A stretch of DNA of 37,373 bases from a virus (Duplodnaviria; Caudoviricetes): positions 1 through 37,373 of the IMG/VR virus record IMGVR_UViG_3300006737_000072; one strand, given 5' to 3'. The notes below the pieces were generated by a model, which worked only from the letters and a program-made list of their open reading frames with translations, was not told the origin of the DNA and made no database searches. Position 1 is the first letter of the stretch, and each line of letters begins with the position of its first letter. A program made the translations under genes and the position numbers. Below are positions 317 through 34,324 of the stretch, one piece after another.

Positions 317-1246
317 TCAGGCTGTAACAACCTCCTCCTTCTTCTCGGAGGTGGCTGCCTCCTCGGTGGTCCCGAGGATCACGGCTGCCGCCTTCTCGGC
401 ACGGGTGGCCCCGTAGTTCAGGGCGGTGGCATCCTCGCCGCAGCGATCCAGCCAGTTCTTGAGGTAGGCCACGCACTGCTCCTCGTTCAGGTCAGTGCCG
501 GTGTTCGCCATGATCATGGCTGCACCGATCTCGGCCACCAACTCCTCGCGGGCGTAGTCCTTGGACCCGAAGCCGCCGTCGAGTTTGCGACCGAGGCGTG
601 ACTTGGCCCCGGTGGCGTGGCAGCATTCGTGGGCCAGAGTCTGGGCGTAGCCCTTGTTTCCGTCCTTGAACTGCTTGACCTCGGGCATGTGGATGCAGTC
701 CATGGATGGGATGTAGCAGGCTTGATCGCCGCCGTCGTGGACCTGCACACCTTCGGCGTTGCACCAGTCGAGGCAGGTGGTCTCGGCGGCGGTGATGGCA
801 TCCTCGACCGAGAGGCCGGTTACGGGGCCGCAGATGCGGTCAAGGCGTGCTTCAAGTTTGGTCAACTCCTCGGCAGGCACATCGCACTGCTCGATGTTGA
901 ACACGTTGAAGGTCTTGAACAGCGGGATACGCTTCATCTCGCCATCCTCCTCCTTGTGGAGCCACTTCCAGAAGAAGACGGTGGTGGCCTTCTCGCCCTT
1001 GCGGACGGACCCGCCGAGGTTCTTGACCTGCTTGAAGGTGAGATACCACGGGCTGGAGTAGCCGTTGAAGGCCAGCATCAGAGAGTTCATGCCGGTGTAG
1101 GGGCGACCCGTGGACACCGACCGAGGGTAGGATCGACCTTGGGGGCCTTGGAGCCACGGCAAGATCCATGGCTTGATGTTGCCGGACTCAAGGGCGGTGG
1201 TGAGGGTGGTGACGGTGTTGGAACAGTGGTCTTGGAATTTGGTCAT
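317..1246 (-). CDS. ardC: ArdC-like antirestriction/ssDNA-binding protein with C-terminal zincin-like metallopeptidase domain
   Basis: Motifs PWILPW, TGRPYTGMN, YLTFKQVKNLGGSVRKGEKA, FNVFNIEQ, HECCHATG (HExxH), YAREELVAEIGA, YLKNW; RBS GGAGTATCCCA-ATG. Confidence 0.92.
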   Translation of the reverse strand: MTKFQDHCSNTVTTLTTALESGNIKPWILPWLQGPQGRSYPRSVSTGRPYTGMNSLMLAFNGYSSPWYLTFKQVKNLGGSVRKGEKATTVFFWKWLHKEEDGEMKRIPLFKTFNVFNIEQCDVPAEELTKLEARLDRICGPVTGLSVEDAITAAETTCLDWCNAEGVQVHDGGDQACYIPSMDCIHMPEVKQFKDGNKGYAQTLAHECCHATGAKSRLGRKLDGGFGSKDYAREELVAEIGAAMIMANTGTDLNEEQCVAYLKNWLDRCGEDATALNYGATRAEKAAAVILGTTEEAATSEKKEEVVTA

Positions 1247-6333: not shown

Positions 6334-6398
6334 CCGTGACAGATGTCACGCATAAATGCGACCTAGATAAGAGAAGAGAACATAAGAGAAGAAAAGAG
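6334..6398 (+). repeat. Conserved element copy B: CCGTGACAGATGTCACGC-N4-ATGCGACC plus AAGAG tract
   Basis: Inverted copy of 207-258; contains the palindrome CGTGAC-N4-GTCACG. Confidence 0.85.
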
Positions 6399-6412
6399 CG
6401 TACAGTCAAACC

Positions 6413-6721
6413 ATGTCAATGATTCGCGTCATGAACTGCTACTTGCCCCTGAATGCGATATCAGCGGTTGAGATCAAGCACACCGGGGCTGTTGTCCACC
6501 TTAGTCCCGATACTGCTGATGTTCTTTCACGCAATCAAATTGAAGTGCCGATAGATGACACGCCAGCCCTATGCGATTGGCTTGACGCGATGATTGAGCC
6601 ACCTTTGGTTTTGCACAGGTCGCTGATTGAAGAGAACACTGAGCCGGTTGAGCCAGTGGATTACAAACCGCCAAAGAAGGCTCCGGCCAGAAAGCCTAGA
6701 GGTAAACGTGCTTCGGATTGA
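6413..6721 (+). CDS. Hypothetical protein (102 aa, basic C-terminal tail)
   Basis: Fills the terL-portal gap; protein-like composition. Confidence 0.75.
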   Translation: MSMIRVMNCYLPLNAISAVEIKHTGAVVHLSPDTADVLSRNQIEVPIDDTPALCDWLDAMIEPPLVLHRSLIEENTEPVEPVDYKPPKKAPARKPRGKRASD

Positions 6722-8483
6722 TGAGACATTCCGCGAAGAGGTGAAGGCCGCTCGCAATTGGCGAGATAAGCACCTCATGCACTGGAAGGCGATGAAGGAA
6801 CGGTTTACCGGACCTGCCTACCGACACGAGAACTACGTCGAGGGGGCTGACATCGAGAACATCGTGGGCCAGTATGTATCACTGGTTCTTCCTCGTGTCG
6901 CATACGACTACCCCCGCATCCACGTTACGGCTGATGACCCCCAACAGGATCGTCGTGCCAGAGCGTTGGAGTTGATGCTGAACCAATGGTCCAAGCGTTC
7001 CGCCCTGCGTCCGACACTGCAAGAACTTGCAACTGATATGTGTTTGCTTTGGGGGGTTGGCTTGGTTACCCCAGAACCAGTGAAGCACCTTCGCCGCATT
7101 GACATGGGCGGAGCGGGCCTAATGCCACGGGTGTACCGGATTGCACCCGAGAACTTCTTTGTCGATCCGTCAGCGGAGTCACATCGTGAAGCCCGCTACT
7201 TCGGTCATGAGTACCCCATCGACATCGAAGACCTTGTTGCTATGGCGGAAGATCCTGAGAATAAGTTGGATCTTGATGTCGTGAAAGAACTCAAGAGTTC
7301 ATACGACACCTACCGCGAGAAGTTTAGAACTTCCGTAAAAGATTTGCCCGAACGCGATCAGACCATCATGATGGAGGTTTGGTGTCCTGAATTAGACATC
7401 GAAGGTGCAAAAGACGGCGTTCACCACGGTGGCCTGCTCAAGTTTGCCATGAGTGCCGAGAATGACATCGTCATGATTGGGGAGCCAATCCCTTACTACG
7501 GCCCCGCTTGCGGCCCGTACACCATGGTCGGGGCATACGAGGTTCCGTCTGACGTTTACCCACTTAGCCCAATGACTATGGCGTTGCCGCTGATCGAAGA
7601 AGCCAACGATCACGCCAAGACCATGTCCTACTCCGCTGGTGCATACCGACGATTGATTGCGGTTGACTCACGCGGAACCAAAATGGCCCAAGACATTGCG
7701 TCTACGCCTGACTTGTTTGTTGTACCTACCGAGAACTTGGACCGCGACCGCGTGGTTCCCATGGAAATCGGTGGGGTTACCCAGCAACAGATGGCCTACC
7801 AGAACATTATGTCCGCTCGCCTTGACCGGCTGACGGGCATGTCCGAAGTGATTCGAGGATCGGTAACTGGGGATGCCACAGCAACGGAAGTATCAGCCGC
7901 ATCGGCCTCTTCCGGTCTTCGGCTCGCATACATTCAGCGTCAGTTTGCTGAAGCCGTGAATTCCATGGCCTACAAGGCTGCTTGGTACGTCATCAACGAC
8001 ACTACCGAGTTGCCCATGGGCCGTGAGGCTGTCGAAGAAGGCATGCCTGCAAAGATGCCCGGCACAGAACTGGGCGTTGACCTGTCTGAGTTGACGCTTG
8101 ATGTTCAGGCGTACTCAATGGAGCGAACCTCCGAAGCATTGCAGCAGCGTCGTGCGGTTGAGTTGATGCAAATCATCGGCAACGTCGGGCAGCAGGCCAC
8201 GCAAATGCCGTTTATTGACTGGCAGCGAATGATGACTGTGGTCGGGGACGCGTTGAACATGCCTGACATGGCGGACATCCTGAACCTCGATGAACTTAAA
8301 CGTATGACCGAGCAGGCGCAACAAATGCAGCAGCAGCAAATGCAAATGCAGCAGGAACAGGCCGAGGCCAACGTCCAGCAGAAGCAAGCGGCTGCTCGTT
8401 CAAGAATGCAGCGTGGTCCAGCCGATGCAGGTACAGAAGCACGGAACCAAGAGCGTGCGGCTGGCGAAGGTGGTGGCTTTTAA
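6708..8483 (+). CDS. Portal protein (P22-like); probable GTG start at 6708
   Basis: Position after terL; about 590 aa; motifs YRIAPENFFVDPSA, RLTGMSEVIRG, DATATEV; Q-rich helical C-terminus; AGAGGT before the GTG. Confidence 0.88.
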   Translation: MLRIDETFREEVKAARNWRDKHLMHWKAMKERFTGPAYRHENYVEGADIENIVGQYVSLVLPRVAYDYPRIHVTADDPQQDRRARALELMLNQWSKRSALRPTLQELATDMCLLWGVGLVTPEPVKHLRRIDMGGAGLMPRVYRIAPENFFVDPSAESHREARYFGHEYPIDIEDLVAMAEDPENKLDLDVVKELKSSYDTYREKFRTSVKDLPERDQTIMMEVWCPELDIEGAKDGVHHGGLLKFAMSAENDIVMIGEPIPYYGPACGPYTMVGAYEVPSDVYPLSPMTMALPLIEEANDHAKTMSYSAGAYRRLIAVDSRGTKMAQDIASTPDLFVVPTENLDRDRVVPMEIGGVTQQQMAYQNIMSARLDRLTGMSEVIRGSVTGDATATEVSAASASSGLRLAYIQRQFAEAVNSMAYKAAWYVINDTTELPMGREAVEEGMPAKMPGTELGVDLSELTLDVQAYSMERTSEALQQRRAVELMQIIGNVGQQATQMPFIDWQRMMTVVGDALNMPDMADILNLDELKRMTEQAQQMQQQQMQMQQEQAEANVQQKQAAARSRMQRGPADAGTEARNQERAAGEGGGF

Positions 8484-17512: not shown

Positions 17513-17526
17513 AGGAACTTGACTGA
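17398..17526 (+). CDS. 42-aa single-TM protein (MSYSFSDVLAALLVVSGAFIAGMWVGRPIVDWLKGKILKELD)
   Basis: AAGGA upstream; TGATG coupling to the tail fibre gene; overlaps the upstream gene's tail. Confidence 0.65.
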   Translation: MSYSFSDVLAALLVVSGAFIAGMWVGRPIVDWLKGKILKELD

Positions 17527-18998
17527 TGTCAGTAAAGATTCAACTGCGTCGAGGAACGCAAAGCGAGTTTTCCACCAACAACCCAACCCTGTTGGAGGGT
17601 GAAGTTGCAGTAGTGACTGATGATAAGAAAATCATCATTGGCCCCGGTGCGTTCAACGCTTTGGATGCTGCTGGCAAGTTCATCAACTACCACACCGATC
17701 AAGGTCTTGGCACAGTTGGTGGGTCTAACGCTACAAGTGAGATTCCGATTAAGTTGGTTGGGGCCAGCGGGCAAGCCGTTGCTGCTTTGCAGGTGCTTAA
17801 GAACGGTGGGTCCAACGGCATCCTTGAGGTGTTTACTGACAACACCACTGAACTGGTCAAGATCAACGCGGCAGACGGTGCGGTTGATGACATCTCGCTG
17901 CTGCTCAAAGCCAAAGCCAGTCAGACTGCTGCTGTCCTTGAGGTACAGGACTCCGGCGACACCACTCCACGCTTCCAAGTCAAAGAAGAAGGCCAAACCC
18001 TTATTGACCCAAACGACACAACAGATCCGTCGCTTCGGATTAAGAAGTCTTCCGGCAGTCAAAGCAATGGTATTTTGCGAGTCAATGAGGGCGGGACTGC
18101 GGAGTTCCAAGTCCTTGACGGGGGGATTTCGGTTGCAGGAACCTCGGCTCTTGAGGGCAATGTGACCGGCAAAGCCATCACTACCATTCAAAACGGTGCG
18201 GATGATACTGACCGGGTTGTGATTAAGGGTCTTGCCAGCGGTAATGTCATCGAGACATTTGAAGACAACGTATCTAAATTTAAGGTCGAGGCTACCGGGG
18301 CAGTTACATCAGAGGCTAAAGGCACGTTCGCCGATGCTGAAATTGATGTTTCTGGACGCACACTTGTCGATACCAGCGTTATGCGGCGAGACGAGATCGT
18401 TGATGAGTATCAGGCATTCAAGATGTACCACATTGATAGCAACATCCCTGCTGGTGCTTCTAGTACCTTGAAAATTAGAAAGTTTACGTCTACCGACGGA
18501 AACCCGTTGACCTTTTTCAATCTTGACAAACTTTCCTCTACTGCGGTTGTAACAAGTAGCGGCAGTGCAGGGGGTACAGAACCTGACATGGCCGATACGC
18601 CGGGCAGTTCGGTCTTCCCGGCTATCAAGTTAGCGGCGGGCGAAACAATGCTCCTCAAGATGGAATTAGAGGCCGAAGACCCCCCCTTCGGGACTACTCA
18701 ATGCCAAGTGCAACTCAACCGATACTCCTCAGACAGCCTTGCCTCTGGCGTAAGAGTACTGATAAGAGAGGAGACCGTTGCGGCCTCTTCGTATATTTTC
18801 ACCCATGCGGTTCTAAACAATGGGACTACCGATTTTTTTATTGCCGTCTCCACGTCGCAAACAGTGGCCTCCAATGGGGCCGGTGTGACGTGTAGCGGGC
18901 AGGCCCTCATCACAAAATCGTTGTCCCCCGCCCTAGTCGGACTGAGTACCGGGGCTACGGCTTTTGAAATTACCACCGTACCCGTAGTTATTCCGTAA
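17526..18998 (+). CDS. Tail fibre / receptor-binding protein with Mtd-N-like N-terminus
   Basis: KIQLRRGT...NPTLLEGEVAVVTD...IIIG; repeated ASQTAAVLEV/FQV fibre-shaft units. Confidence 0.82.
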   Translation: MSVKIQLRRGTQSEFSTNNPTLLEGEVAVVTDDKKIIIGPGAFNALDAAGKFINYHTDQGLGTVGGSNATSEIPIKLVGASGQAVAALQVLKNGGSNGILEVFTDNTTELVKINAADGAVDDISLLLKAKASQTAAVLEVQDSGDTTPRFQVKEEGQTLIDPNDTTDPSLRIKKSSGSQSNGILRVNEGGTAEFQVLDGGISVAGTSALEGNVTGKAITTIQNGADDTDRVVIKGLASGNVIETFEDNVSKFKVEATGAVTSEAKGTFADAEIDVSGRTLVDTSVMRRDEIVDEYQAFKMYHIDSNIPAGASSTLKIRKFTSTDGNPLTFFNLDKLSSTAVVTSSGSAGGTEPDMADTPGSSVFPAIKLAAGETMLLKMELEAEDPPFGTTQCQVQLNRYSSDSLASGVRVLIREETVAASSYIFTHAVLNNGTTDFFIAVSTSQTVASNGAGVTCSGQALITKSLSPALVGLSTGATAFEITTVPVVIP

Positions 18999-23193: not shown

Positions 23194-24599
23194 CCCGACA
23201 AACACCTAGACGATATGGGCAAGGCAGCCCAGTTGGAAACCAAATCCGTGACAATATATCCAAGCAAGACCTTGGATCAATCATGCGGCCTGACCCCGAA
23301 ATGGGTACAAAGGACGCAGGTAAGTCTCTTGCGGCACTTCGCAACGGCGACTACCAAGGGCTTGAGGGCATTCAGTTTGGTGTGATGCAGGGCAATCCTG
23401 TAGCCATCTTGCCTGACGGTCATGCCGTGGTCATTTCTGCTGGCGAAGCAATGCAGGGTATCACCCAACGTAACAAGCGGCGGCAGCAAATCGGCGAGCA
23501 GATGGCTTACGACGAGGACGTTAAGCACTTTGCTGAGACCAACCGAAGAACCATGCAGCAACTGGTTGACGGCTTTGAGTTTGCCCCGGCTATCTCTGGC
23601 GGGTATATGTCACTGTACGAGTCCTCCCCCATGGAAACCATGCAGGAGTTGTTGCAGTATGACCGGGGCCAAAGAGAAGAGGCTACCCGCTCGCTGGTTT
23701 CCAAGCAAAGAACTGCCCGCAACAACACCATCAATAATTCCTTGAGCATGATGGCAAGAAATGCCAAGGGTTCGGGTGCAAGTGCAGATGAAGCGGGCCG
23801 CCTCCAAGTAGGCGTGGGACACTTACGCAACTTCGCTACACGCGCAGCACCGCTGGATGACCTGAACGAAGTGCTTGCCGACCCGGCTGCGTTGGCTGAA
23901 CTTCAGATGGCTTTGCAGGGGGTCAGTCCCGGCACTTTGTCAAAAAGCAAAAGGGCGTTGATCGACAACCAGCGTGACGCAGAGTTTGTTGGCGAGCCGT
24001 ATATGATGAACCCGCAACAAGACTACCCCGCGTTGCACTCTGCTTTGAAAACCATGTTTACTTCAGGCGGCATGGCAAATGCTATCAATGTAGACGCAGC
24101 AGTTGCCGCCGTTCTTGAAGCGGAGAATGTGATTGTTGACCCGGCATCCCTTCGTGCCAGCGCACGACTTGAAGTTAGCAGCCGCCTAAGCAAATATGGC
24201 ACGCCTAACAAAAGTGCGGAGCGTAAAGCGTTTGAAAAGGATGACACCAACGTACCAGATCGGTTTACGCCAAAGGGCGATGGGTACGTTGATGCGGGCG
24301 GCAGAGAATACACCCTCGAAGAAGTGAAATCTGATATTAACAAACGAGATTTTATCTCTCGTGCGATGAGTCTCGCTTCCGACTTTGTAAATCTTAACGA
24401 AATGCCTGAAAAGTATCAACGGCTCGCGGAAGCGGGCAGTGACGCACAAAAGCCACTAGTAGAACTTTACTTCTACTACGAGTCCATGCTTGACGGAAAG
24501 CGGGAAGCGGTTCAATCAGTGAAACGCATGGAAGAAAACCCTAGCGATATTCGGTCAAAACTAAAAACGATTCTTCAAGCAGCAGGATTTAACGTTTGA
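23190..24599 (+). CDS. Probable internal virion / ejection protein (469 aa)
   Basis: Helical, Cys-free, coupled to both neighbours. Confidence 0.65.
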   Translation: MTRQTPRRYGQGSPVGNQIRDNISKQDLGSIMRPDPEMGTKDAGKSLAALRNGDYQGLEGIQFGVMQGNPVAILPDGHAVVISAGEAMQGITQRNKRRQQIGEQMAYDEDVKHFAETNRRTMQQLVDGFEFAPAISGGYMSLYESSPMETMQELLQYDRGQREEATRSLVSKQRTARNNTINNSLSMMARNAKGSGASADEAGRLQVGVGHLRNFATRAAPLDDLNEVLADPAALAELQMALQGVSPGTLSKSKRALIDNQRDAEFVGEPYMMNPQQDYPALHSALKTMFTSGGMANAINVDAAVAAVLEAENVIVDPASLRASARLEVSSRLSKYGTPNKSAERKAFEKDDTNVPDRFTPKGDGYVDAGGREYTLEEVKSDINKRDFISRAMSLASDFVNLNEMPEKYQRLAEAGSDAQKPLVELYFYYESMLDGKREAVQSVKRMEENPSDIRSKLKTILQAAGFNV

Positions 24600-27500
24600 G
24601 CGATCCACTATTCGACAACATAAACCTCGACTTTGAGTTCTTAACCAGAGAGCAGGCGGCCCGGCAACGGTCTGCACCAACAGCCGAGGATATCTTCAAG
24701 TTCCTGCCGGGGATTGAGGATGTTGTTGATCGTGAAGCCTTTACAGCGGAGTACGACAAGGGCATTGCTGCGTTAATGAACTCCGACATTGATCGCATGG
24801 ACGGCTTCTTTGAAGCGTTTGGCGAAGAAATGTTTCGTCAAGAGCAGTTGTTGTTGGCGGTGGATGACCTTGACCTTAACCCCTTTACCGATGACAAAAC
24901 TGTTGAGGGAGAGACTGCGGCACGAAGAAGAGTTGTCGAAGCAAGAAGAGCCTTGGAAATGCAGGGCAAAGAGGGGGAGACCGGGGTATTTACAGCGCAG
25001 GGAGGTCGTGGTCTTGGCGAATCCATAAACGAGATGCTTGTCACGCCTGCCATCACTGCTTTTGGTGGCGGCCTTGCTGGTCTTTTTGGTGGTCCGGCAG
25101 CACCAGTAACTGTACCCGCTGGTATGGCTGTGGGGTACAAAGGGGGTCAGGCTCTTGGTGCGGCACGACTTGCTGACCGCGTTTACAACCAGTCCATGAT
25201 GGAGTACCAAAACAACCTGATGGAGGAAAACAGGAGAAGGTACATCAATGGCGAGGACATGATCTCTTACGACCTAGAAGACTCTAGGCTTTATGCTGGG
25301 CGTGCTGTTGCGGTCGAACTGATGATGGAGTTGACCACCTCAAGAATACCGGGTCTTCGCACAGTTCCAAAAGGTGCAAAAAAAACAGGAAAAGGGGTCG
25401 GCGGAAAAGCCGTCACAGACTTTACTGACGCAGAACTCAGTGCCATTCGCGGCGGAGCCAAACAACACGTTAGAAAATTTGCTGCTAACACTCTTAGGCA
25501 GTCGGGCCAAGAGGCGTTTGAAGAAGGGTTTGCAGGACTTGCCAATGATTCCCTTGCTGAATTGCAGGAGTTCGTTTCCGGCGACGAGTTAAATGTTCAA
25601 GGCCGGTTTGACGTAGGCGGGTATTTTCAAGATGCATTGCTTGGGGCAGTGGGCGGGTCTGCGTTTGGCAGTTTGCACTACACCCAACAAGCCGCCGCCA
25701 GTGTTGGGTTGCGTGCAGCCGAACGAGCGGCACTGGGACCGCAGGCAAGACAGGCCCGAGACACAGCAGCCGAAATTGCCGACATTGAATCAGGAGCATT
25801 GGAGGCGGACGCTTCTGAGTTTGGGGCTTTGAGCGAAGAGGCTCAACAAGAACGGGTTGATCAAACCAGAGAAGACGCAGAGGCCGCGAGACAAAGGGCA
25901 GCAGATGCTGGACAGCGTGCGTCTGACTTGCAGGCTGAAGCCGCAAAAGATGACGGACCCTCCATGGAGGAGCAGCAGTCAAAAATTGATGAGGCTGTCG
26001 CAGAGCGTGACGAAGCGTTTGCTGACTACAACAAGTTGGCTCGCCGGGTTCGTCTTTACAACGAAGTCTTTGGCAAGAAGGTGACAGACGCTGGCACGCA
26101 AACCGTCGAAGAACACCTTGGCAACATGAGCAAGCCCAAGACGAAGTCGGATGAAGGCGAAGCAGCATCTACGCCATTTAGCGTGCGTGCCAAGGCAGCA
26201 TACACCATTGCCGAAAAAGCAGCCGTGGCACTTGGTAACCGACTTGGCGTAAATGTAGTGTTTGTGGACGGTGGTCAAAACACCGAGAATGACTCCGCCA
26301 CTGGGTGGTTTGCATATCAAGTAGAGGCTAAAGATAGCAAGCCAACAGTAGTCCTTCGTAGTGCTGATGCCATTGGTCAAATAATCTCTCAAGGCGGGGC
26401 CAAGTCAGAAGTTGGCGCACTGTACCTTCGCGGCTTGGTGGCCCACGAGGCTATCCACGCGGTGCAGTTCTACAACCCAGAGTTGTACCGGCACATTCGT
26501 TCGTTAATGGATGACTCTCGGGTTCTTCAGGCTGCACAAAGTTACTCCAAGGACCTTTACCGAGTTGAGGGGCTGGGCAACACTCGTCCCGTGGCTCCCG
26601 GTACGCAGGCCCTTATGGCTTTGCTGCATACTGCCAACCCGGACTCTTCAGTGTTTGGCGAAGATGCCGCAGCCTTTGTCGAGGCTGAAGGTGCTGCACG
26701 ACTTATTGAAGAAGGTGCGAGAAAGTTTGACGGCAAGGTTGAAAGTTTGCTGGCTCGCATTGGATTATTGGGAGGAAAGGCACAGCATGCCCAACGAGTG
26801 CTGCGTGTTCTTGAGGCCGCCGCTGCCGAAGAAGGCGGCTTGGCCGCTGCCGAGGCCCCGGTAGGTGGGAGCCGTGCAACTTTGCTGGCGGGCATGCGGT
26901 TTGACCAGTTGCTTACGGGCGAGGCTCAGCGTGCCAAAGAAGAGCAAGAGCGTGAGGCTCGTGAGAAGGCGGCGGACGCACTTGAGGAGGAGATGCGTGA
27001 CGGGGTCACCCCTGAAGACGTAGACGCAGCCTTGGAAGAAGAAGGCATTGACCCAGACGAGGCAACCGAAAGTGATGTTGCCAAGGCCCGGATTGCTGTT
27101 GCGGTGGACAACAACATGCGTTCCGACAATCTTGCAGAGTTCTACGGGGCGACAGACGAAGAACTTCGCGTCACCATGTACCACGGAACAAGGTTCCCGT
27201 TTGCCGAGAGTGATGTCTTTGACCCATCGTTGTCAGAGTTGGGCCTGCACCTCACCGCCAACCCAATCGTGGCGAACACCTTTGCAGACTCACAACTCGG
27301 AACTGGTGACCAGCGTGTCTACCCACTGGTTGCTCGGATGGAAAACCCGTTGCGTCTGCTTGACCCAATGTCGTGGAACGAAACCACGGTTGGCGTTGGG
27401 GTCACATACGAACTTGGAATTCCTACCGCAGAAGCAATTGTTGGCATGCGACGTATGGAGGCGGACGCTTTTACAGATGTGGTGACTAGCAAGTTGGACG

Positions 27501-30500
27501 CTATGACTCGCGGCGTTCGCATGCGAAGGCTGGCTGATAAGACGGGCATGGACTTGCTTTTCAAGATTAGCGAGACTTTGCGAAATGATGGGCCGGAAGC
27601 AGCAGCGGAACAGATTCGCAAAATTGCCAACGCTCGCCAGAAAGTCATGACAAAGCAAGGCAGGGAAACACCTGTGTTTGCCAGAGAGGTTTACAACCGC
27701 CGAATGCAAAGGTACATCCAAAGCCTCGGTTATGACAGCGTTGTCTACGTCAACCGGGCCGAGATGGAAAACACCATAGGTGGAGGCACAGCCGGTAATG
27801 ACAACCTGCTTGCCTTCCCCAGCATTGCGGTGTCTGACCGACTTTCGCAAGAGGATTTGCGAGAAGAGATAGTTTCTGACGCGGTGTGGGCAGAGGAAGC
27901 CGAGAAAATGGGACTGCGTCCTGAAGATTCTCACATCGTCTTTGATGCAAATCAGATCAAGAGTGCAACAGGCAACAACGGCTCCTTCTCCTTGAATGCC
28001 AGCATTGCCAAGGCCCGGATTAGCCGACCCGGTCCCGACGTTGACTCAGGATCGCTGACATCTACGATGCTTGGTGACGTACCGCCTGAGCGACATGGCG
28101 AGTTGCTCGCGGCTGCTCAGGTTGCAGCAAACCTTGACCTTGAAGAGATCCGTCACACCGAATGGGTTGGCGAGATGCGGAAGTCGCCGCACGCCAACAC
28201 CCTGACCATTCCAACCGCAGCGGAGTTCACTGAGGTTGACTCCGAAGGCAACCCAAGAATCCGAGCGTTCCGCATTACCGGGACCAACGTGGTGTATGCA
28301 CTGAAGCGTGTTGAACAAGGGCAAGACGAAGACAACCCAACCTTTGACGGTTACGAGTGGACTGGCCTTGCGAACAACGAGACCAACGCACGCGACGTTG
28401 TTCCGATTGTTGCCGGTCATGCTATACTGATGGCGGACGGCAAGCCCGTTCGTGGAGACTACTTTGACGTTCGCAAGCCCGGATCGTTGGTCGGCAAGTT
28501 GCCCGCCTTGTATCGCCGTGTCGGCTTCAAAATCACAGGCCGTGTCGAGTTCGATCCACAGTTCTTAGACCCTGAAACATTCCCAGCACAACTTGAAGCA
28601 TGGAAGGCTGATGGCTGGAACCCGGAGTATAACTATGACGAAAGCAACCCCGAACCAGAAGCCGTTGGCGGAGAACGTGTCCCGAGCAACCTCCCTGCTG
28701 TCGAGTATGCCGTTCTTGACGGACTCTCAGAAGCAGAACTTTCAAGCATCCGTAGCGGCGGGCTTAGAGCATGGGTTGCTGTCGCCGAGCAGCGTTCAGG
28801 ATCTCCAGTCATCCGAAGCCGTGACGCTTCTCAGCAGGCTGAAGACGGCACACGACGAGTGGACGAGGGACGATCTGAGCAGCGAGATGTGGGAGATGTA
28901 TCAGGAAGACCCGCAGACGCTGTTGCAGATGGTGAAGGACGAGGAGAGCCTGATCAAGGAACTGGACGAGCAGCCGATGACACCGTTCGTCCAAGCACTG
29001 ATGGAGAGGCTCGACCTCAGCGAAAACGTCAGGGCCAAGTAAACCTCACCAAACTGGCTGTCCTTGCACAGGCAGAGGCACGCAACAAAGACGTTGCCGA
29101 ACTAGCCCGCATGATGATCGGGATGGACCTTCTGCCAGATGCAGAGTGGTATCGCCTGCACAAGGAGTGGAAAGACAGCGGCACGAAACTGGAGAGCAAG
29201 TCCCCAGAGGCTGTGGCTTTCCGCGAGTACGCTAATGCTCACGCTCGTTCCGTTGGGTTGCCCGGACGGAACACCAAGGGTTCAGGCCCTGTTGCCAAAG
29301 AGCAACGCAACCTTCTCCAGCGTGCGCTCAACTACCGCTCAATCGCCGCTGCGGGCCGCCTGAAGACTTTGCTGGGCATCGACGGGTCTGAGGTCTCGGA
29401 AGACCAAGCAGCCGATCTGAGGGCTTTGTACGTCGAAGCCATCGCTCAGGGTATTGCAGCCGTTAGTTCCAACAGTGAACTAAGTGACGCAGAGATGTGG
29501 TATGGAACCACGATCAGCAACATGGTCCGTGTTCTAAACAACCGTGTGCCGGGCCTTCGACGAACCGACCCGAACTTCCAAGAAAACCGTGTGGTCTTCA
29601 CCATGATTCTTGCCATCATGTCTAATGGTGAGAAGATCGACCGCAACATGGCGAAGGCTATCGAGGCGTTCAACACCTACGTTGAGACAGGTGAACTCAA
29701 GGCTCCTGCGGGTTACCGAGTGGGTGCTGACTTCGTCACCATCCAGCAGTTGCGTGAACACTTCGGCTCATGGACTGAGGTTGCCAACTGGATGAAGCAG
29801 CGTGGCACGGTAGGTGAAGTCAATGCCCGCATTCGCCAACTGAAGAAGGACATGGACGAGGCAGGTCAAGACAACGACCGGCTCAAGGAAATCTCTGGCG
29901 AACTGGTGGACCAAGACGGGTACAACGCTCTGGTCATCGGCCCCAAGATTGGCTCGTTCTACCTGAACATGAACGAGAACTGGAACCCCATCACCATGGA
30001 CATCTGGTTTACCAGAACCATCGCTCGGGTTGGGGGGATTACCACTCGTGTTCAGAAGCGTGCGACCTCGGACTTCAGGTTCTACCGCCGCTTGATCAGA
30101 TTGAGAAACCACTATGGCAACTCGATTGATCAAGACCGTCAATACATTCGTGAACGGGTCAGCCCCAAGCAACGCAAGACTGTTGACAACATCTTCGGTC
30201 GTATTGTCGAAGGCCGTCAGACCAAGCGGGACATGGGCAAGTTGGAGGAGTATCAGAAGGAGCATGCGGTCAAGTCTGGTGCTGAAGCCAACCGTGACGA
30301 GTGGGCCATATCGATTCACAAATACAACCCAGAGTTCCGCGACAACGAGAACCGTGCGTCCGTTCTTGACAAGGTGTCTCCGCAAGGCGAGATCGCCGAG
30401 GACTTCAACGACACGCTTGAAGCAGATCACAAGGCGTATCGCATTGCCAAGTTTAAAGAAGCAGACCCCCTAAAGAAGGTGGTTCTCACAGTGGTCAACG

Positions 30501-33500
30501 GTTACGCCAAGGACCGCGAGGCCGAGATGGATGCCCCCAACACTGGTGGAGAGCGTGCCGCCATGCGTGTCATCACCACCGAAGCGGTGGCTCGGGCTAA
30601 CGAAATCGTTGAAGAGCAAACAGGTAAGCCCGGTCGCATCACCAACGCTGCTGCACAAGCAAACCTTTGGTATCTGGAGAAGGGCATCTACTTTGCCATG
30701 GTCCAGTCCCCTCAGTACGGCGACCCTCGTGCGCAGGACTTTGCCTCAGCAGCAGACAAGGTCACGAAGGACATGGGCTTCTTCCTTGAGGGTGACGTTG
30801 ACCAAGGCGGCAGCGACCCCAAAATTGCCAAGGCTCGTGTCCACCCCGTTCTTGGCGACAGCAAGACTGCCGGTGAACACAAGGACTTCAACGACGCAGA
30901 CGGAGTAGAGGACGAGGACGCTCCCATTGCCGAGGCCGTGGTGGCACACGGTCGTATCTCCCGACCGCAACTGGAAGGCAGGCTCAATCAACTTTCCAAC
31001 AAGTTGTCTACGGATGAAGCCATGCTTGCCGAGATGTATGGCATCGCTCCGTTCATGAACGACACGCTCAAGAACATCGTCGATGAGCAAAAGGATCTGC
31101 TTGGAAGTCGATTGGGCATGTCCCCGGCACTGGCTGCTGACCGTGGCCTGACCGCTGGTCTCGCTGCCGCCAAGGCTGTTGCTCTGGCAGAGCGACGAAT
31201 GGCTCGCCAAGAAAGACAAGATGCCATCCGCAAGAAGCGTGACCAACTCAAGGCATCGGAAGCCAAGCGTATTGCCAAGTTAAAAGAAGGCTTCGCAGAG
31301 CAGAAGCAGAAGTTGCGTGACCAGTTCAAGGAGCGGCTCGCCAAGATGACCAAGGCCGAGCGAACCCGCAAGAAAGCGGCGTTGCAGCGTGCGTTGGAAG
31401 GTCGCATCAAGGCACTGGAGAATCAGGAAAAGAGGTACGAACGCAGAATCAAGAAGATGCAGAACAAGAACGCCGAGGTTGCTCAACTGCGTTCAATGCT
31501 GGTGGATATGGTTACAACCCACCTGCCCTCTGCGTCACGAGGCAAGTTCATCAAACGTCTGACTCGTAAGAACCTGACGGCTGGGCAGATGTCCAAGATA
31601 TCTGACGAGATCCTCCGCGAGTCTGCAATGGTTGACCTGCGTGGTGCGAAGCAGCGGGTCAAGGCTGCACGCAAAAAGTACGGGAAAAGCGGGCGAAAGA
31701 TGGCTAACGAGACCCGTGAGGCAATCGATGCCGACCTTGCCAAAGCGGAGCAACTCCTTACCACCGACCTAACCGAGATGGACTACGAGAGCATCCGTCG
31801 CTTGGCTGGCGAGGTAGAGGCACTGATCGGTGAAGCCAACGGGAAGTACGACGCTGACCGTGAGTCTTTCAAGGATGAGAAGAATCCGAGAAGCCAAGGC
31901 ATCATGACTCGAATCGAGGCGGTGCTTGACTTCTTGGTGGATCGTCCGGGCAAGCCTCGCAAGGGTCGTGCGATTGGCACTCGTAGGGCTGGAGAACTGG
32001 CAGGCGGGCTTGGTCGCAACGGTGGCTTGGACCTTCGGGCCGCCCTGTCCCTGATCGGATTGAAGGGTGAACACAAGTTGTTGACCCGTGCCGAGGACAG
32101 AAAGAAGTTGGATGCCCGCGAGTTGATCGAGGTTACCAACGCCGTCCTGCGTGAGTATGGCTACCGCAACCTGCAAGACTTTGTTGCCCGCACCTCCGGC
32201 AGTAAGGGCCTTGGTCGCCAAGAGTTTGTTGACTTCACCTACCGGGATAAAGAGGGTGACATTCAGGTGGTGACCCTGTCCTTGGGTCAGGCAATGAAGT
32301 TGCTTGCCATGGACGAACACACCATGGAGCAACTGCGAAAGCAGAATCGCAAAGACCCAACCAAGGTGCAGGAGATTGCGTTCACCAACGTGACCCAGCC
32401 TGTTGAGGGCGGCGAGTCAATCTTTGGATTTGACTTGGCGACAGACATCGAGACCTTCCGCGAGCAGATGCTTGACGAACGTCCAGAGTTGCATGAGATC
32501 ATCATGCGTCTGAAGGATGTCCGCAACAAGTTGCTTAAGCCAAAGGCTATGGCTGCCTTGTTCCGTCTGACCGGCAACACTCCCCCGTCCACCGAAGACT
32601 ACGAGCCACGCAAGATTCGCATGGACTCCCCCGCCGTCAAGGATGAGGACCAGATCGCACAGATGGCAAACGCTGGTACGGTTGGCCCTCGGTTTGCCGA
32701 GAACGCAGGCATGACCATTCGCCGTACGGGCGGGGGGGTTACCTTGGTCGGCGACTTCATGGGTGACTACATGGAGCATGCCGAGAACTCTCTCAACCTT
32801 GCACACATGGCGGAGCCAACCCGAATCCTGTGGTCAGTCCTGAGCGACCGGGAGGCAGGGGAAGCAATCGCCCGAGTTTACGGCGACGAGTACCTGTCCA
32901 ACCTTCGTATTCAAATCGGGTACGGCACTGGCCTGCTGCAAGCCAACATGGATGCTGGCCCGCTCGGTGAGATTGTTGCGATGGCTGCTGGGTCCGCCAT
33001 TGCCCTGAACGACATGACCTTCTTCAAGGTTCTGTTCGGGGGGCTGAACAATATGTTTCTGTCCCCGGACATCTCAGTTGCTCAGGCTATCACCGGCATC
33101 ACTCGTGCTTTTGAGTTGGTTGCGACGGGGCGACTGAACAACTTCATGGAGGAGAAGGTCTACCCCAACAGTGGTTATATGTGGGATCGAGACCACGCCT
33201 CCCACGTTGACCGCCGTGTTGTCTTCACCCGTGAGGATGGTCTTGCCAACGAAAAGGATCTTGCATCCTTCACTGATATCATGGAGTCCACGCTCACCTC
33301 CATGGGTGGGTTGATGGAGTCACTGGCCTCCGGCAACTTGTCCGAGACCAAGACGCACCTCAACGATATTCGCAAGGCTGTGTCCGGAATCAGCAAAGCG
33401 ATTCCCGTGTTGCGAGTGCTTGATCGTGTGATTCAGGCAGCCGCCGTTCTTTCCCAAGCAGACGCAGCGTCCATCACCAAAGAAGATGTGTTGGCTGGTG

Positions 33501-34324
33501 CGGAGATTATTCGTGACACGCAGAACACCTCATCACCGCTGGATGATGCTCGGGCTACCGCTCGCCTCCGGGTTAAGGGTGGCCTGCTTTCCTACTTGCT
33601 GACCTTCTCGTCCGACCCGCTAAAGACCCAGTCTCGCATGCTGGAAGCCGAGACTTTTGGTGAGATTACGAAGGCCAACATGATTGCAGTCGTGAACAAC
33701 GCAGCCATTGGAGTCATGGCCCAGATGATGTCGATGGCAGTGATGGCTGCTCTTCTGGATGACGATGATGAGCGTGACCAAGCGTTGAACGAACTCAACA
33801 AGGCACGCATCAAGAACGGCTGGGACCAAGCCTTGGTTGCAGAACTGATCGGTCGAAAGTTTGGCGTGCTTGGCTTCCTGTTCTCCTACCCACTCAGTGC
33901 CATCTATGAGGCGGTGTCCGACAACATCATGCACGGCACGAAAATTGACTCGCGGTATGCAGAAAAGTTGGCGACCGAATCTCTTACCCCGATTGGTGTT
34001 GTCCCGCTCTTGATCGGAACCGTCGGTGACCTGACCAGAGCGTTCAGTGAACCTGACGATGTCAAGCGAGCAGAGGCACGCGAAGATTTGGCGTTCCGCG
34101 TGTTGCAGTACGGTCTGGGCCTGCCCATCAACCGCATTCAGAAGTATGGCGATGCCGCCCTGACCGAGACTAACCGTGCCGAAGTTCGATCCGCTGATTA
34201 CCTGATGAAGAAGATGAACGAGGAGTTCTCACGGGCGGCCCAGCGTGGTGTTGGTTCTGCGAACAAGGAATATGAACGTGCGAAGAAGTTGCGAGACAGA
34301 CGAGAGAAGTTACGCAACAGGTAG
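24596..34324 (+). CDS. Giant (3242 aa) polyvalent/ejection protein with HExxH peptidase-like, ART-like, GNAT-like and HhH/DUF7178-like modules
   Basis: TTG start overlapping the upstream stop. HEAIH (26444); MYHGT...GYDSVVYVN...IVFDANQIKSATGNNGSF (27176-27990); DYFD...LPALYRRVGFKITGRVEFDPQF (about 28457-28563); WY...LAIMSNG...GPKIGSF...TMDIWF...QANLWY (29498-30675); coiled coil about 31180-31500. Confidence 0.88.
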   Translation: MSDPLFDNINLDFEFLTREQAARQRSAPTAEDIFKFLPGIEDVVDREAFTAEYDKGIAALMNSDIDRMDGFFEAFGEEMFRQEQLLLAVDDLDLNPFTDDKTVEGETAARRRVVEARRALEMQGKEGETGVFTAQGGRGLGESINEMLVTPAITAFGGGLAGLFGGPAAPVTVPAGMAVGYKGGQALGAARLADRVYNQSMMEYQNNLMEENRRRYINGEDMISYDLEDSRLYAGRAVAVELMMELTTSRIPGLRTVPKGAKKTGKGVGGKAVTDFTDAELSAIRGGAKQHVRKFAANTLRQSGQEAFEEGFAGLANDSLAELQEFVSGDELNVQGRFDVGGYFQDALLGAVGGSAFGSLHYTQQAAASVGLRAAERAALGPQARQARDTAAEIADIESGALEADASEFGALSEEAQQERVDQTREDAEAARQRAADAGQRASDLQAEAAKDDGPSMEEQQSKIDEAVAERDEAFADYNKLARRVRLYNEVFGKKVTDAGTQTVEEHLGNMSKPKTKSDEGEAASTPFSVRAKAAYTIAEKAAVALGNRLGVNVVFVDGGQNTENDSATGWFAYQVEAKDSKPTVVLRSADAIGQIISQGGAKSEVGALYLRGLVAHEAIHAVQFYNPELYRHIRSLMDDSRVLQAAQSYSKDLYRVEGLGNTRPVAPGTQALMALLHTANPDSSVFGEDAAAFVEAEGAARLIEEGARKFDGKVESLLARIGLLGGKAQHAQRVLRVLEAAAAEEGGLAAAEAPVGGSRATLLAGMRFDQLLTGEAQRAKEEQEREAREKAADALEEEMRDGVTPEDVDAALEEEGIDPDEATESDVAKARIAVAVDNNMRSDNLAEFYGATDEELRVTMYHGTRFPFAESDVFDPSLSELGLHLTANPIVANTFADSQLGTGDQRVYPLVARMENPLRLLDPMSWNETTVGVGVTYELGIPTAEAIVGMRRMEADAFTDVVTSKLDAMTRGVRMRRLADKTGMDLLFKISETLRNDGPEAAAEQIRKIANARQKVMTKQGRETPVFAREVYNRRMQRYIQSLGYDSVVYVNRAEMENTIGGGTAGNDNLLAFPSIAVSDRLSQEDLREEIVSDAVWAEEAEKMGLRPEDSHIVFDANQIKSATGNNGSFSLNASIAKARISRPGPDVDSGSLTSTMLGDVPPERHGELLAAAQVAANLDLEEIRHTEWVGEMRKSPHANTLTIPTAAEFTEVDSEGNPRIRAFRITGTNVVYALKRVEQGQDEDNPTFDGYEWTGLANNETNARDVVPIVAGHAILMADGKPVRGDYFDVRKPGSLVGKLPALYRRVGFKITGRVEFDPQFLDPETFPAQLEAWKADGWNPEYNYDESNPEPEAVGGERVPSNLPAVEYAVLDGLSEAELSSIRSGGLRAWVAVAEQRSGSPVIRSRDASQQAEDGTRRVDEGRSEQRDVGDVSGRPADAVADGEGRGEPDQGTGRAADDTVRPSTDGEARPQRKRQGQVNLTKLAVLAQAEARNKDVAELARMMIGMDLLPDAEWYRLHKEWKDSGTKLESKSPEAVAFREYANAHARSVGLPGRNTKGSGPVAKEQRNLLQRALNYRSIAAAGRLKTLLGIDGSEVSEDQAADLRALYVEAIAQGIAAVSSNSELSDAEMWYGTTISNMVRVLNNRVPGLRRTDPNFQENRVVFTMILAIMSNGEKIDRNMAKAIEAFNTYVETGELKAPAGYRVGADFVTIQQLREHFGSWTEVANWMKQRGTVGEVNARIRQLKKDMDEAGQDNDRLKEISGELVDQDGYNALVIGPKIGSFYLNMNENWNPITMDIWFTRTIARVGGITTRVQKRATSDFRFYRRLIRLRNHYGNSIDQDRQYIRERVSPKQRKTVDNIFGRIVEGRQTKRDMGKLEEYQKEHAVKSGAEANRDEWAISIHKYNPEFRDNENRASVLDKVSPQGEIAEDFNDTLEADHKAYRIAKFKEADPLKKVVLTVVNGYAKDREAEMDAPNTGGERAAMRVITTEAVARANEIVEEQTGKPGRITNAAAQANLWYLEKGIYFAMVQSPQYGDPRAQDFASAADKVTKDMGFFLEGDVDQGGSDPKIAKARVHPVLGDSKTAGEHKDFNDADGVEDEDAPIAEAVVAHGRISRPQLEGRLNQLSNKLSTDEAMLAEMYGIAPFMNDTLKNIVDEQKDLLGSRLGMSPALAADRGLTAGLAAAKAVALAERRMARQERQDAIRKKRDQLKASEAKRIAKLKEGFAEQKQKLRDQFKERLAKMTKAERTRKKAALQRALEGRIKALENQEKRYERRIKKMQNKNAEVAQLRSMLVDMVTTHLPSASRGKFIKRLTRKNLTAGQMSKISDEILRESAMVDLRGAKQRVKAARKKYGKSGRKMANETREAIDADLAKAEQLLTTDLTEMDYESIRRLAGEVEALIGEANGKYDADRESFKDEKNPRSQGIMTRIEAVLDFLVDRPGKPRKGRAIGTRRAGELAGGLGRNGGLDLRAALSLIGLKGEHKLLTRAEDRKKLDARELIEVTNAVLREYGYRNLQDFVARTSGSKGLGRQEFVDFTYRDKEGDIQVVTLSLGQAMKLLAMDEHTMEQLRKQNRKDPTKVQEIAFTNVTQPVEGGESIFGFDLATDIETFREQMLDERPELHEIIMRLKDVRNKLLKPKAMAALFRLTGNTPPSTEDYEPRKIRMDSPAVKDEDQIAQMANAGTVGPRFAENAGMTIRRTGGGVTLVGDFMGDYMEHAENSLNLAHMAEPTRILWSVLSDREAGEAIARVYGDEYLSNLRIQIGYGTGLLQANMDAGPLGEIVAMAAGSAIALNDMTFFKVLFGGLNNMFLSPDISVAQAITGITRAFELVATGRLNNFMEEKVYPNSGYMWDRDHASHVDRRVVFTREDGLANEKDLASFTDIMESTLTSMGGLMESLASGNLSETKTHLNDIRKAVSGISKAIPVLRVLDRVIQAAAVLSQADAASITKEDVLAGAEIIRDTQNTSSPLDDARATARLRVKGGLLSYLLTFSSDPLKTQSRMLEAETFGEITKANMIAVVNNAAIGVMAQMMSMAVMAALLDDDDERDQALNELNKARIKNGWDQALVAELIGRKFGVLGFLFSYPLSAIYEAVSDNIMHGTKIDSRYAEKLATESLTPIGVVPLLIGTVGDLTRAFSEPDDVKRAEAREDLAFRVLQYGLGLPINRIQKYGDAALTETNRAEVRSADYLMKKMNEEFSRAAQRGVGSANKEYERAKKLRDRREKLRNR
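28635..29042 (+). CDS. Candidate nested gene in the +1 frame of the giant protein (135 aa; alternative start 28707, 111 aa)
   Basis: GGAG 7 nt before ATG 28635; acidic, helical, Cys-free product; the host frame switches to GGA/CGA-rich low-complexity sequence over the same interval. Confidence 0.65.
   Translation: MTKATPNQKPLAENVSRATSLLSSMPFLTDSQKQNFQASVAAGLEHGLLSPSSVQDLQSSEAVTLLSRLKTAHDEWTRDDLSSEMWEMYQEDPQTLLQMVKDEESLIKELDEQPMTPFVQALMERLDLSENVRAK

Follow-up and report, generated by a model that had tools for sequence, protein, structure and literature searches.

An acidic gene nested in the linker of a giant phage protein and its candidate partnership with a GNAT module

Can the linker between two modules of a giant phage protein also encode a second, separately translated protein and, if so, which neighbouring module does that protein serve? 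The question is raised by a 37-kb phage record (IMG/VR record IMGVR_UViG_3300006737_000072), all 37,373 nucleotides of which were analysed and are called the window here. Its giant polyvalent-type gene (24596..34324, plus strand; 3242 amino acids) contains, on the same strand and in the +1 frame, an open reading frame (ORF) at 28635..29042 that lies behind a GNAT-fold module. A first-pass annotation, made from the letters alone, had placed this ORF behind GGAG-N7-ATG, with a second ATG at 28707; coordinates, spacing, second ATG and frame are all confirmed in the sequence. We conclude that the ORF is very likely a real nested gene, because codon choice in the region goes beyond what the amino acid sequence requires, divergence is suppressed, substitutions are biased towards preserving the +1 frame and a stand-alone copy exists.

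Coding footprint and conservation of the nested frame

The ORF is complete: both its start and its stop lie within an ORF that is read in another frame. It would encode 135 amino acids (isoelectric point (pI) 4.5) with a predicted all-helical core from about residue 30, and is likely to be the partner gene of the GNAT module. Its TAA stop (29040..29042) overlaps the main-frame codons GTA-AAC (Val-Asn), where the next module begins; we use 'main frame' for the frame of the giant protein. Length and openness were considered as evidence for a gene and rejected: the stop-to-stop run of 157 codons is the longest +1 run in the giant gene, but the shadow run that holds 27048-27485 reaches 153, and the probability of the +1 frame being open (P(open)), given the main-frame protein and the codon usage of the gene, is 0.19–0.22.

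Composition was tested by synonymous resampling. The +1 product carries 21–22 Asp/Glu where 5.9–6.5 are expected, an excess reached by none of 20,000 resamplings, whereas the count in the shadow ORF is reached by 58% of them. The composition given in the first-pass annotation holds (21 Asp/Glu in the last 111 residues, no Cys, and 4 Asp/Glu in the shadow ORF at 27048-27485). Within the giant gene no second +1 ORF is strongly acidic (the nested ORF has z 6.0, and one other reaches z 2.7), and +1-frame codon log-odds are positive in only one 120-base interval of that gene, at 28916. The R/G/D-rich main-frame linker (28724..29040) is probably a by-product of the codons of the nested gene: its R+G content is 0.25–0.28 versus 0.16 gene-wide, and from the second ATG to the stop the main frame uses GGA for 10 of 15 Gly codons (elsewhere in the gene, 32 of 250) and CGA or AGA for 11 of 16 Arg codons (62 of 248). 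This GGA/CGA footprint had also been pointed out at first pass.

Homology searches with the nested product returned 3 proteins, then 1 more and finally, with a 6-sequence profile and 2155 candidates, a total of 19 database proteins that are 28–96% identical. They form three or four clades, and five residues (W, F, Q, L and L) are invariant over 21 rows. All 19 members with a long N terminus, of 25 examined, are compatible with main-frame PSNLP read one base back, and are therefore located behind the same GNAT end. Nucleotide sequence could be compared for only a few of these homologues; P0004, for which there is the main frame only, has no forced +1 stop and an R+G-rich linker, is compatible and was left out of the counts. 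Single-protein searches and two- to four-row locus searches found no match in viral contigs or annotated phages, a GNAT alignment search of GTDB genomes found none, and a scan of metagenomes yielded no more than two identical copies of the window and three matches by chance. A pattern search gave 66 loci with one true relative, L015.

The GNAT of L015 is 45% identical to that of the window, and a homologous ORF follows it that ends in the same Val-Asn codons and has the same Asp/Glu excess beyond synonymous resampling. By main-frame codon position, identity between the two loci is 0.66/0.64/0.39 in the GNAT and 0.51/0.61/0.40 downstream; in the linker it is 0.45/0.49/0.57 when aligned on the +1 frame and 0.44/0.45/0.45 when aligned on the main frame, so that third-position freedom is lost there. 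Shuffling gives z 3.5 for the +1 frame of the linker and 1.4 for the main frame. A more distant locus, L073 (GNAT 35% identical), has a 92-residue +1 ORF with a P(open) of 0.0026 that ends at the same place by a different codon pair.

At short range, a close strain differs from the window at 7 of 441 bases over the nested ORF and at 90 of 1329 in the flanks (Fisher p = 6e-6; p = 0.03 against the upstream flank alone). Among the five differences after 28707, two are silent in the +1 frame, two are silent in the main frame and one changes both. Conservation does not follow the main frame only: third-position freedom is lost against L015, divergence is suppressed in the close strain, and substitutions are biased towards the +1 frame between L072 and L197, the latter two being described below. 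The homologues, the resampling, the strain divergence and L197 support the earlier proposal that the +1 frame is selected and encodes a separate small acidic protein. In the close strains, the downstream module (29061-29800) diverges by about 10% compared with 3.8% upstream, which suggests a recombined tract.

The nested products have a pI of 4.3–4.5, and the structure model has six helices (pLDDT 73, pTM 0.59). We found no Pfam family (one sub-threshold GA hit) and no PHROG, PADLOC or ESM Atlas match; the best PDB sequence match was a geminin coiled coil at E 0.5, BFVD gave no E below 0.001, and VIA-align gave a best Z of 5.2 with no clear fold match. The absence of family and fold matches is no proof of a new fold. 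Neither the window protein nor P0002, P0005 or P0019 has a Pfam match to the ribbon-helix-helix domain DUF1778; the model consists of helices only.

A stand-alone copy in a Phycisphaerales genome

Among 45 pattern matches in a genome scan, one locus, L197, carries a relative of the nested gene outside a giant gene, in a metagenome-assembled genome (MAG) of the Phycisphaerales. The copy sits behind housekeeping genes and a tRNA-Arg. Of nine relatives examined, seven could be oriented and none has this piece, and we therefore read it as an insertion; in six of the seven, one long opposite-strand gene directly follows the tRNA. The inserted segment (L197:5732-7349) lies at the 3' end of the tRNA-Arg and contains a short direct repeat and the stand-alone gene. 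It also holds two further tiny ORFs (6360-6440, and one that ends at 6613) and a minus-strand ORF fragment (6617-7348) with a possible +1 ORF of its own (6703-6957, z 1.7). The insertion could be an array of captured pieces or the edge of a decayed prophage.

Only 341 bases of L197 match the phage locus L072, at 93%, and the stop of the L197 copy comes one codon later than that of the window. L197 and L072 agree at 14 of 30 positions immediately upstream of the ATG and at 86 of 91 downstream of it, and substitutions that are synonymous in the +1 frame and change the main frame occur at a rate of 0.184 versus 0.056 for the reverse class. In this incomplete MAG we found the GNAT tail but no GNAT core; with the window proteins as queries, portal and DUF7178-like genes were not found either, a weak negative for the same incomplete genome. 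The match suggests that the L072 clade has a Phycisphaerales host, which need not be true of the phage of the window.

L197 also bears on the choice of start. In the window, a Shine–Dalgarno-like GGAG (28624..28627) lies 7 bases (TATAACT) before the first ATG, with a pairing energy of -6.1 that ranks 5 of 72 among +1-frame ATGs; the site is compatible with a start without being unique. GGAG and ATG are kept in the register of the window in L072 (spacing 10) and in L197 (N7), and each of the three clades has an ATG at the first start or beside it. The most telling of these loci is L197, because in the phages GGAG also encodes main-frame Pro-Glu: here GGAG-N7-ATG is kept while main-frame P-E-Y-x-Y has changed to R-E-I-x-H. 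The second ATG (28707..28709) is a possible alternative start for a 111-residue form; it has no usable Shine–Dalgarno site, and its Met is kept in P0002/P0003 and the P0005 clade and is missing at the same place in the L015 clade. Predicted mRNA openness is ordinary at either ATG, and scans for sigma-70 promoters and terminators gave nothing beyond chance. As L197 retains the ribosome-binding site and start in register where conserved residues of the GNAT tail have been lost, 28635 is the more likely start.

The neighbouring modules and the likely partner

The first-pass annotation had named either the upstream GNAT or a downstream helix–hairpin–helix (HhH)-like domain as the possible partner. 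The upstream module (about residues 1170-1376, 28103..28723, plus strand; boundaries approximate) is predicted to have a GNAT fold and to be an acetyltransferase, in line with the earlier label: its AlphaFold2 model (pLDDT 72) has a best Foldseek match at E 1.3e-3 with probability 1.0 and template-modelling scores of 0.45–0.5, and the matches listed are acetyltransferases or their complexes. The L073 homologue matches 'acetyltransferase' genes of Streptomyces phages at E ~1e-3; Pfam GNAT models match none of four family members at E up to 1, and there is no PHROG match. The HhH-like label of the downstream module (29300..30805, plus strand) was not confirmed. That module has no PDB sequence match, and the only lead is to DUF7178, from an ESM Atlas feature score of 0.95 to a cluster with PF23802 on 33% of its members, which has low recognition value; tblastn gives matches of 22–25% to three phage giant proteins. 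We refer to it as DUF7178-like. Its pI is 7.3 and that of the GNAT module 4.6.

To survey the family, a pattern for the wider GNAT family was used, and 120 of about 450 matching loci were taken, 80 of them with full flanks and 76 distinct. Of these, 51 distinct loci carry a fused GNAT, defined by at least 200 residues upstream in the same ORF. A survey of the region behind the GNAT only had found a +1 ORF at about 7 of 72 loci, and the absence of a GNAT link that was read from this count was overturned by ORFs in front of the GNAT. An acidic +1 ORF abuts 47 of the 51 fused GNATs (43 in front only, 3 behind only, 1 both; 4 neither), and the +2-frame control gave 2 and 2. None of 19 stand-alone GNATs has one. 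Scanned frame-wide, 48 giant ORFs that bear a GNAT (62,564 codons) yielded 22 further acidic +1 ORFs, every one of them at the same place, 190–270 codons before the GNAT end motif. A profile of the front type gave 39 hits, all in the +1 frame and ending 87–159 codons before the DxFD motif, at 37 of the 51 loci; as the profile was built from 22 of the surveyed loci, those hits are circular. The front-type ORFs are mostly one family with an HPGLT motif whatever module precedes them, and that module varies (a DUF7178-like end motif in 7 of 22).

Among 15 DUF7178-like domains without a preceding GNAT, only 2 have an acidic +1 ORF within 260 codons in front. Because fused GNATs abut such an ORF so much more often than these domains do, the GNAT is the likely partner of the nested protein, and of the two candidates originally named the downstream domain is disfavoured. 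In the window, L072 and L073, the front ORF is missing and the rear ORF is present, a complementarity with Fisher p = 0.006. In a quick tree, in which long branches meet, the rear-type GNATs cluster (5 changes versus 9.6; 0 of 500 shuffles), and the tree shows nothing further. L015, the close-strain contigs and the survey also support the idea that gene and GNAT travel as one cassette. The close-strain contigs diverge from the window at 27906, near the end of an ART-PolyVal (PF18760) module (residues 860-1131, 27173..27988, plus strand; Pfam E 6e-8, above the gathering score), with loose ends before 27906 in three of four runs. The breakpoint suggests that the upstream module has been exchanged while the GNAT, the nested gene and the downstream module stay.

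The setting is that of a polyvalent protein. The giant gene is the last of a plus-strand run in which terminase, portal and major head genes with Pfam or PHROG matches lie upstream, and its product combines ART-PolyVal and a GNAT fold in one 3242-residue chain. From this gene position and from PMC5512222, the giant protein is inferred to be packaged and injected with the virion. According to the main text of PMC5512222, one GNAT family of polyvalent proteins typically neighbours an ART domain and solo members exist, which resembles the arrangement here; that text does not describe a nested partner gene, and 'overlap', 'linker' and 'low-complexity' have 0 occurrences in it. At least half of the sampled words of the record are present in 10 of 24 listed marine metagenome runs, and 0.06–0.09 of them in three RNA runs. 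The phage also has a second polyvalent-type anti-restriction gene, with ArdC-N and MPTase-PolyVal domains (window 317-1246, minus strand), and a gene with an Mtd_N (major tropism determinant N-terminal) domain that is likely to encode a tail fibre (17526-18998, plus strand).

Several other nested ORFs were seen in the survey. The front-type family is widespread and unannotated (L074-L153, for example L139, L114 and L134, and L194:4998-5213) and has no Pfam match. L194, L195 and L196 (PQ492659, MW202722 and MW202640) have two acidic nested +1 ORFs per giant gene (z 3.2–6.7), none of them annotated, which adjoin modules other than those of the window; PQ492659, a Limnohabitans phage in culture, has a GNAT locus of the front type and is a possible test system. 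L102, L110, L111, L148, L180 and L113 form a separate GNAT clade with rear-type nested ORFs that share a C-terminal L-x-Q...G-x-L-like motif and precede different modules; the L113 candidate is open and less acidic. L079, L084, L095 and L149 are stand-alone GNAT genes like those of Streptomyces phages, each followed by a 43-residue acidic ORF without a profile match to the nested families. L114 has a further acidic +1 ORF about 196–276 codons before a DUF7178-like domain and not beside a GNAT.

A possible antidote and competing explanations

We propose that the nested protein is an inhibitor that binds the GNAT module and keeps the packaged enzyme inactive in the virion-producing cell, a prediction of function to which we give even weight for and against. 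Translation of the nested gene would begin at GGAG-N7-ATG (28635) on the late mRNA of the giant protein, so that both proteins would be made together from the same message, and the nested protein would bind the GNAT during assembly. As a separate chain, it would be left behind or shed when the giant protein unfolds and is ejected, and the GNAT would then be active only in the newly infected cell. Placement in the linker would hold the gene to the GNAT through module shuffling while leaving the giant ORF unbroken, and the copy in the Phycisphaerales tRNA-Arg insertion would be an orphan antidote that protects its carrier in trans. We prefer an inhibitor because adjacency, co-inheritance and an orphan copy match what is predicted of an antidote, whereas a helper alone would be useless. 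The first-pass reading is thus upheld in part: a selected +1 gene, a GNAT fold, a cassette and the GNAT as the likelier partner are supported, and the HhH-like label is not confirmed.

Several observations weigh against this proposal. Co-occurrence indicates partnership rather than inhibition, and physical linkage alone makes neighbours travel together. The absence of a profile hit or nested ORF at all 19 stand-alone GNAT genes of the family means that the enzyme can exist without such a gene, and 4 of the 51 fused GNATs lack an abutting ORF by the criteria used. The front–rear complementarity amounts to about one event, because the three rear loci form one clade. Comparison of the window family with the front-type family does not establish homology (hhalign gives a probability of 1.3% at E 0.04, and the profile reaches the L015 member at E 1.6). 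The ORF of L073 differs in sequence from that of the window (z -0.7), its acidity is not significant (p = 0.10) and the same gene has a longer +1 run. In L194-L196, acidic +1 ORFs are also found behind other modules, and linkers may simply be free coding space. The main frame is constrained as well: three of the five strain differences after 28707 alter the +1 protein, and the split of these differences between the frames implies constraint on both. The GNAT module is itself acidic, like the nested protein, so there is no simple charge fit. Finally, the stand-alone copy comes from one MAG contig, about 1 kb from the contig end, its main frame continues open over 230 codons, and 400 further genomes of the order yielded no copy.

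The nested protein might instead be a genuine partner of the GNAT that helps it, by chaperoning its folding or packaging, by activating it, or as a substrate or acyl-carrier adaptor. The same association data fit such a role, and its presence at fused and not at stand-alone GNATs would suit a requirement that a module has only as part of a giant chain that is packaged; without a client, a helper would serve no obvious purpose, yet L197 is under +1-biased selection where no GNAT core was found in the incomplete MAG, and the fold search, a weak test, gave no notable carrier-protein or chaperone match. We consider this explanation unlikely, and somewhat more so a protein that only borrows the linker space and hits host or rival-phage targets independently of its neighbours, as an anti-defence protein, DNA mimic or superinfection blocker. 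Many anti-defence proteins are small, acidic and helical, as this product is predicted to be, a copy is kept alone in a tRNA-adjacent insertion, and unrelated nested ORFs lie behind other modules. Against this, the 22 acidic +1 ORFs in 48 GNAT-bearing ORFs all sit at one place and are not scattered over linkers, acidity is partly allowed by the disordered R/G main frame and PADLOC gave no match.

That the downstream DUF7178-like module is the partner seems improbable. In the main lineage the nested gene stands in front of its module, in the window, L015 and L073 the ORF ends exactly where the DUF7178-like module begins, GNAT, ORF and this module travel together, and an acidic protein could mask a nucleic-acid-binding domain, as the pI of 7.3 against 4.6 for the GNAT might indicate; however, DUF7178-like domains without a GNAT rarely have such an ORF (2 of 15), and the GNAT in these phages lacks a front ORF. 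Programmed frameshifting, which would give a shortened giant protein an acidic C terminus, or translational control without a function of the protein, is very improbable. Frameshifted structural proteins are known in phages, and the +1 frame opens at 28569, inside the GNAT tail, but the DNA alignment shows no shared slippery site by eye, an ATG is kept at or next to the first start in the three clades, amino acid motifs are conserved and L197 keeps the ORF from GGAG-N7-ATG without the upstream gene. Least credible of all is that there is no gene, only a shadow frame that is open and acidic through the composition of a disordered linker. P(open) alone (0.19–0.22) would allow it, and database entries are no proof, since gene callers report such frames on short contigs; codon choice beyond the amino acid sequence, suppressed divergence, +1-biased substitutions and the stand-alone copy speak against it.

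Nested phage genes, GNAT toxin–antitoxin pairs and polyvalent proteins are each already known. Lambda Rz1 is nested in Rz on the same strand in the +1 frame, and the Rz and Rz1 products act together. The gene here is likewise complete, with its own start in another gene and in the +1 frame, with joint action established for Rz/Rz1 and inferred here; it differs in lying in an inter-domain linker of a 3242-residue protein with no lysis role, and in that the nested ORFs track one module, switch side between lineages and have a stand-alone chromosomal copy. In polymorphic toxin–immunity cassettes, a small gene lies directly behind the effector module, modules are swapped by recombination and orphan immunity genes occur. 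The place behind the effector module, module swapping, unlike partners at homologous effectors and an orphan copy in a tRNA-adjacent insertion are shared with these, but here the effector is internal rather than C-terminal, the partner is overprinted and delivery would be by the virion. GNAT toxins are held by adjacent antitoxins (AtaRT type, with DUF1778 antitoxins; PMC9177977 and PMC7470980), and the arrangement here resembles such pairs in that a small gene abuts the GNAT, on its front side in the main lineage (43 of 51). The partner here has no DUF1778 or other Pfam match and lies out of frame inside the ORF of the putative toxin, itself a GNAT module within a likely virion protein. A literature search, with subscription journals mostly outside its coverage, turned up no account of genes nested in the linkers of polyvalent proteins.

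The proposal bears on how enzymatic effectors can be made and packaged by phages without harm to the producing cell. We tentatively suggest, as a generalization that we hold to be possible rather than probable, that each phage GNAT effector module is paired with its own antidote gene in another frame of one or the other flanking linker, that the pair moves as a unit in module shuffling with the giant ORF unbroken, and that bacteria or integrated elements lift the gene out as orphan immunity against the injected enzyme. A partner gene at almost every fused GNAT offers a direct and cheap test, and possibly a means to clone and assay these uncharacterized enzymes. The R/G/D-rich 'low-complexity linkers' of giant proteins would be coding footprints that annotation has overlooked. 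The orphan small genes of bacterial tRNA islands may include antidotes captured from phages and, if the proposal is true, such orphan copies would represent an undescribed kind of anti-phage defence.

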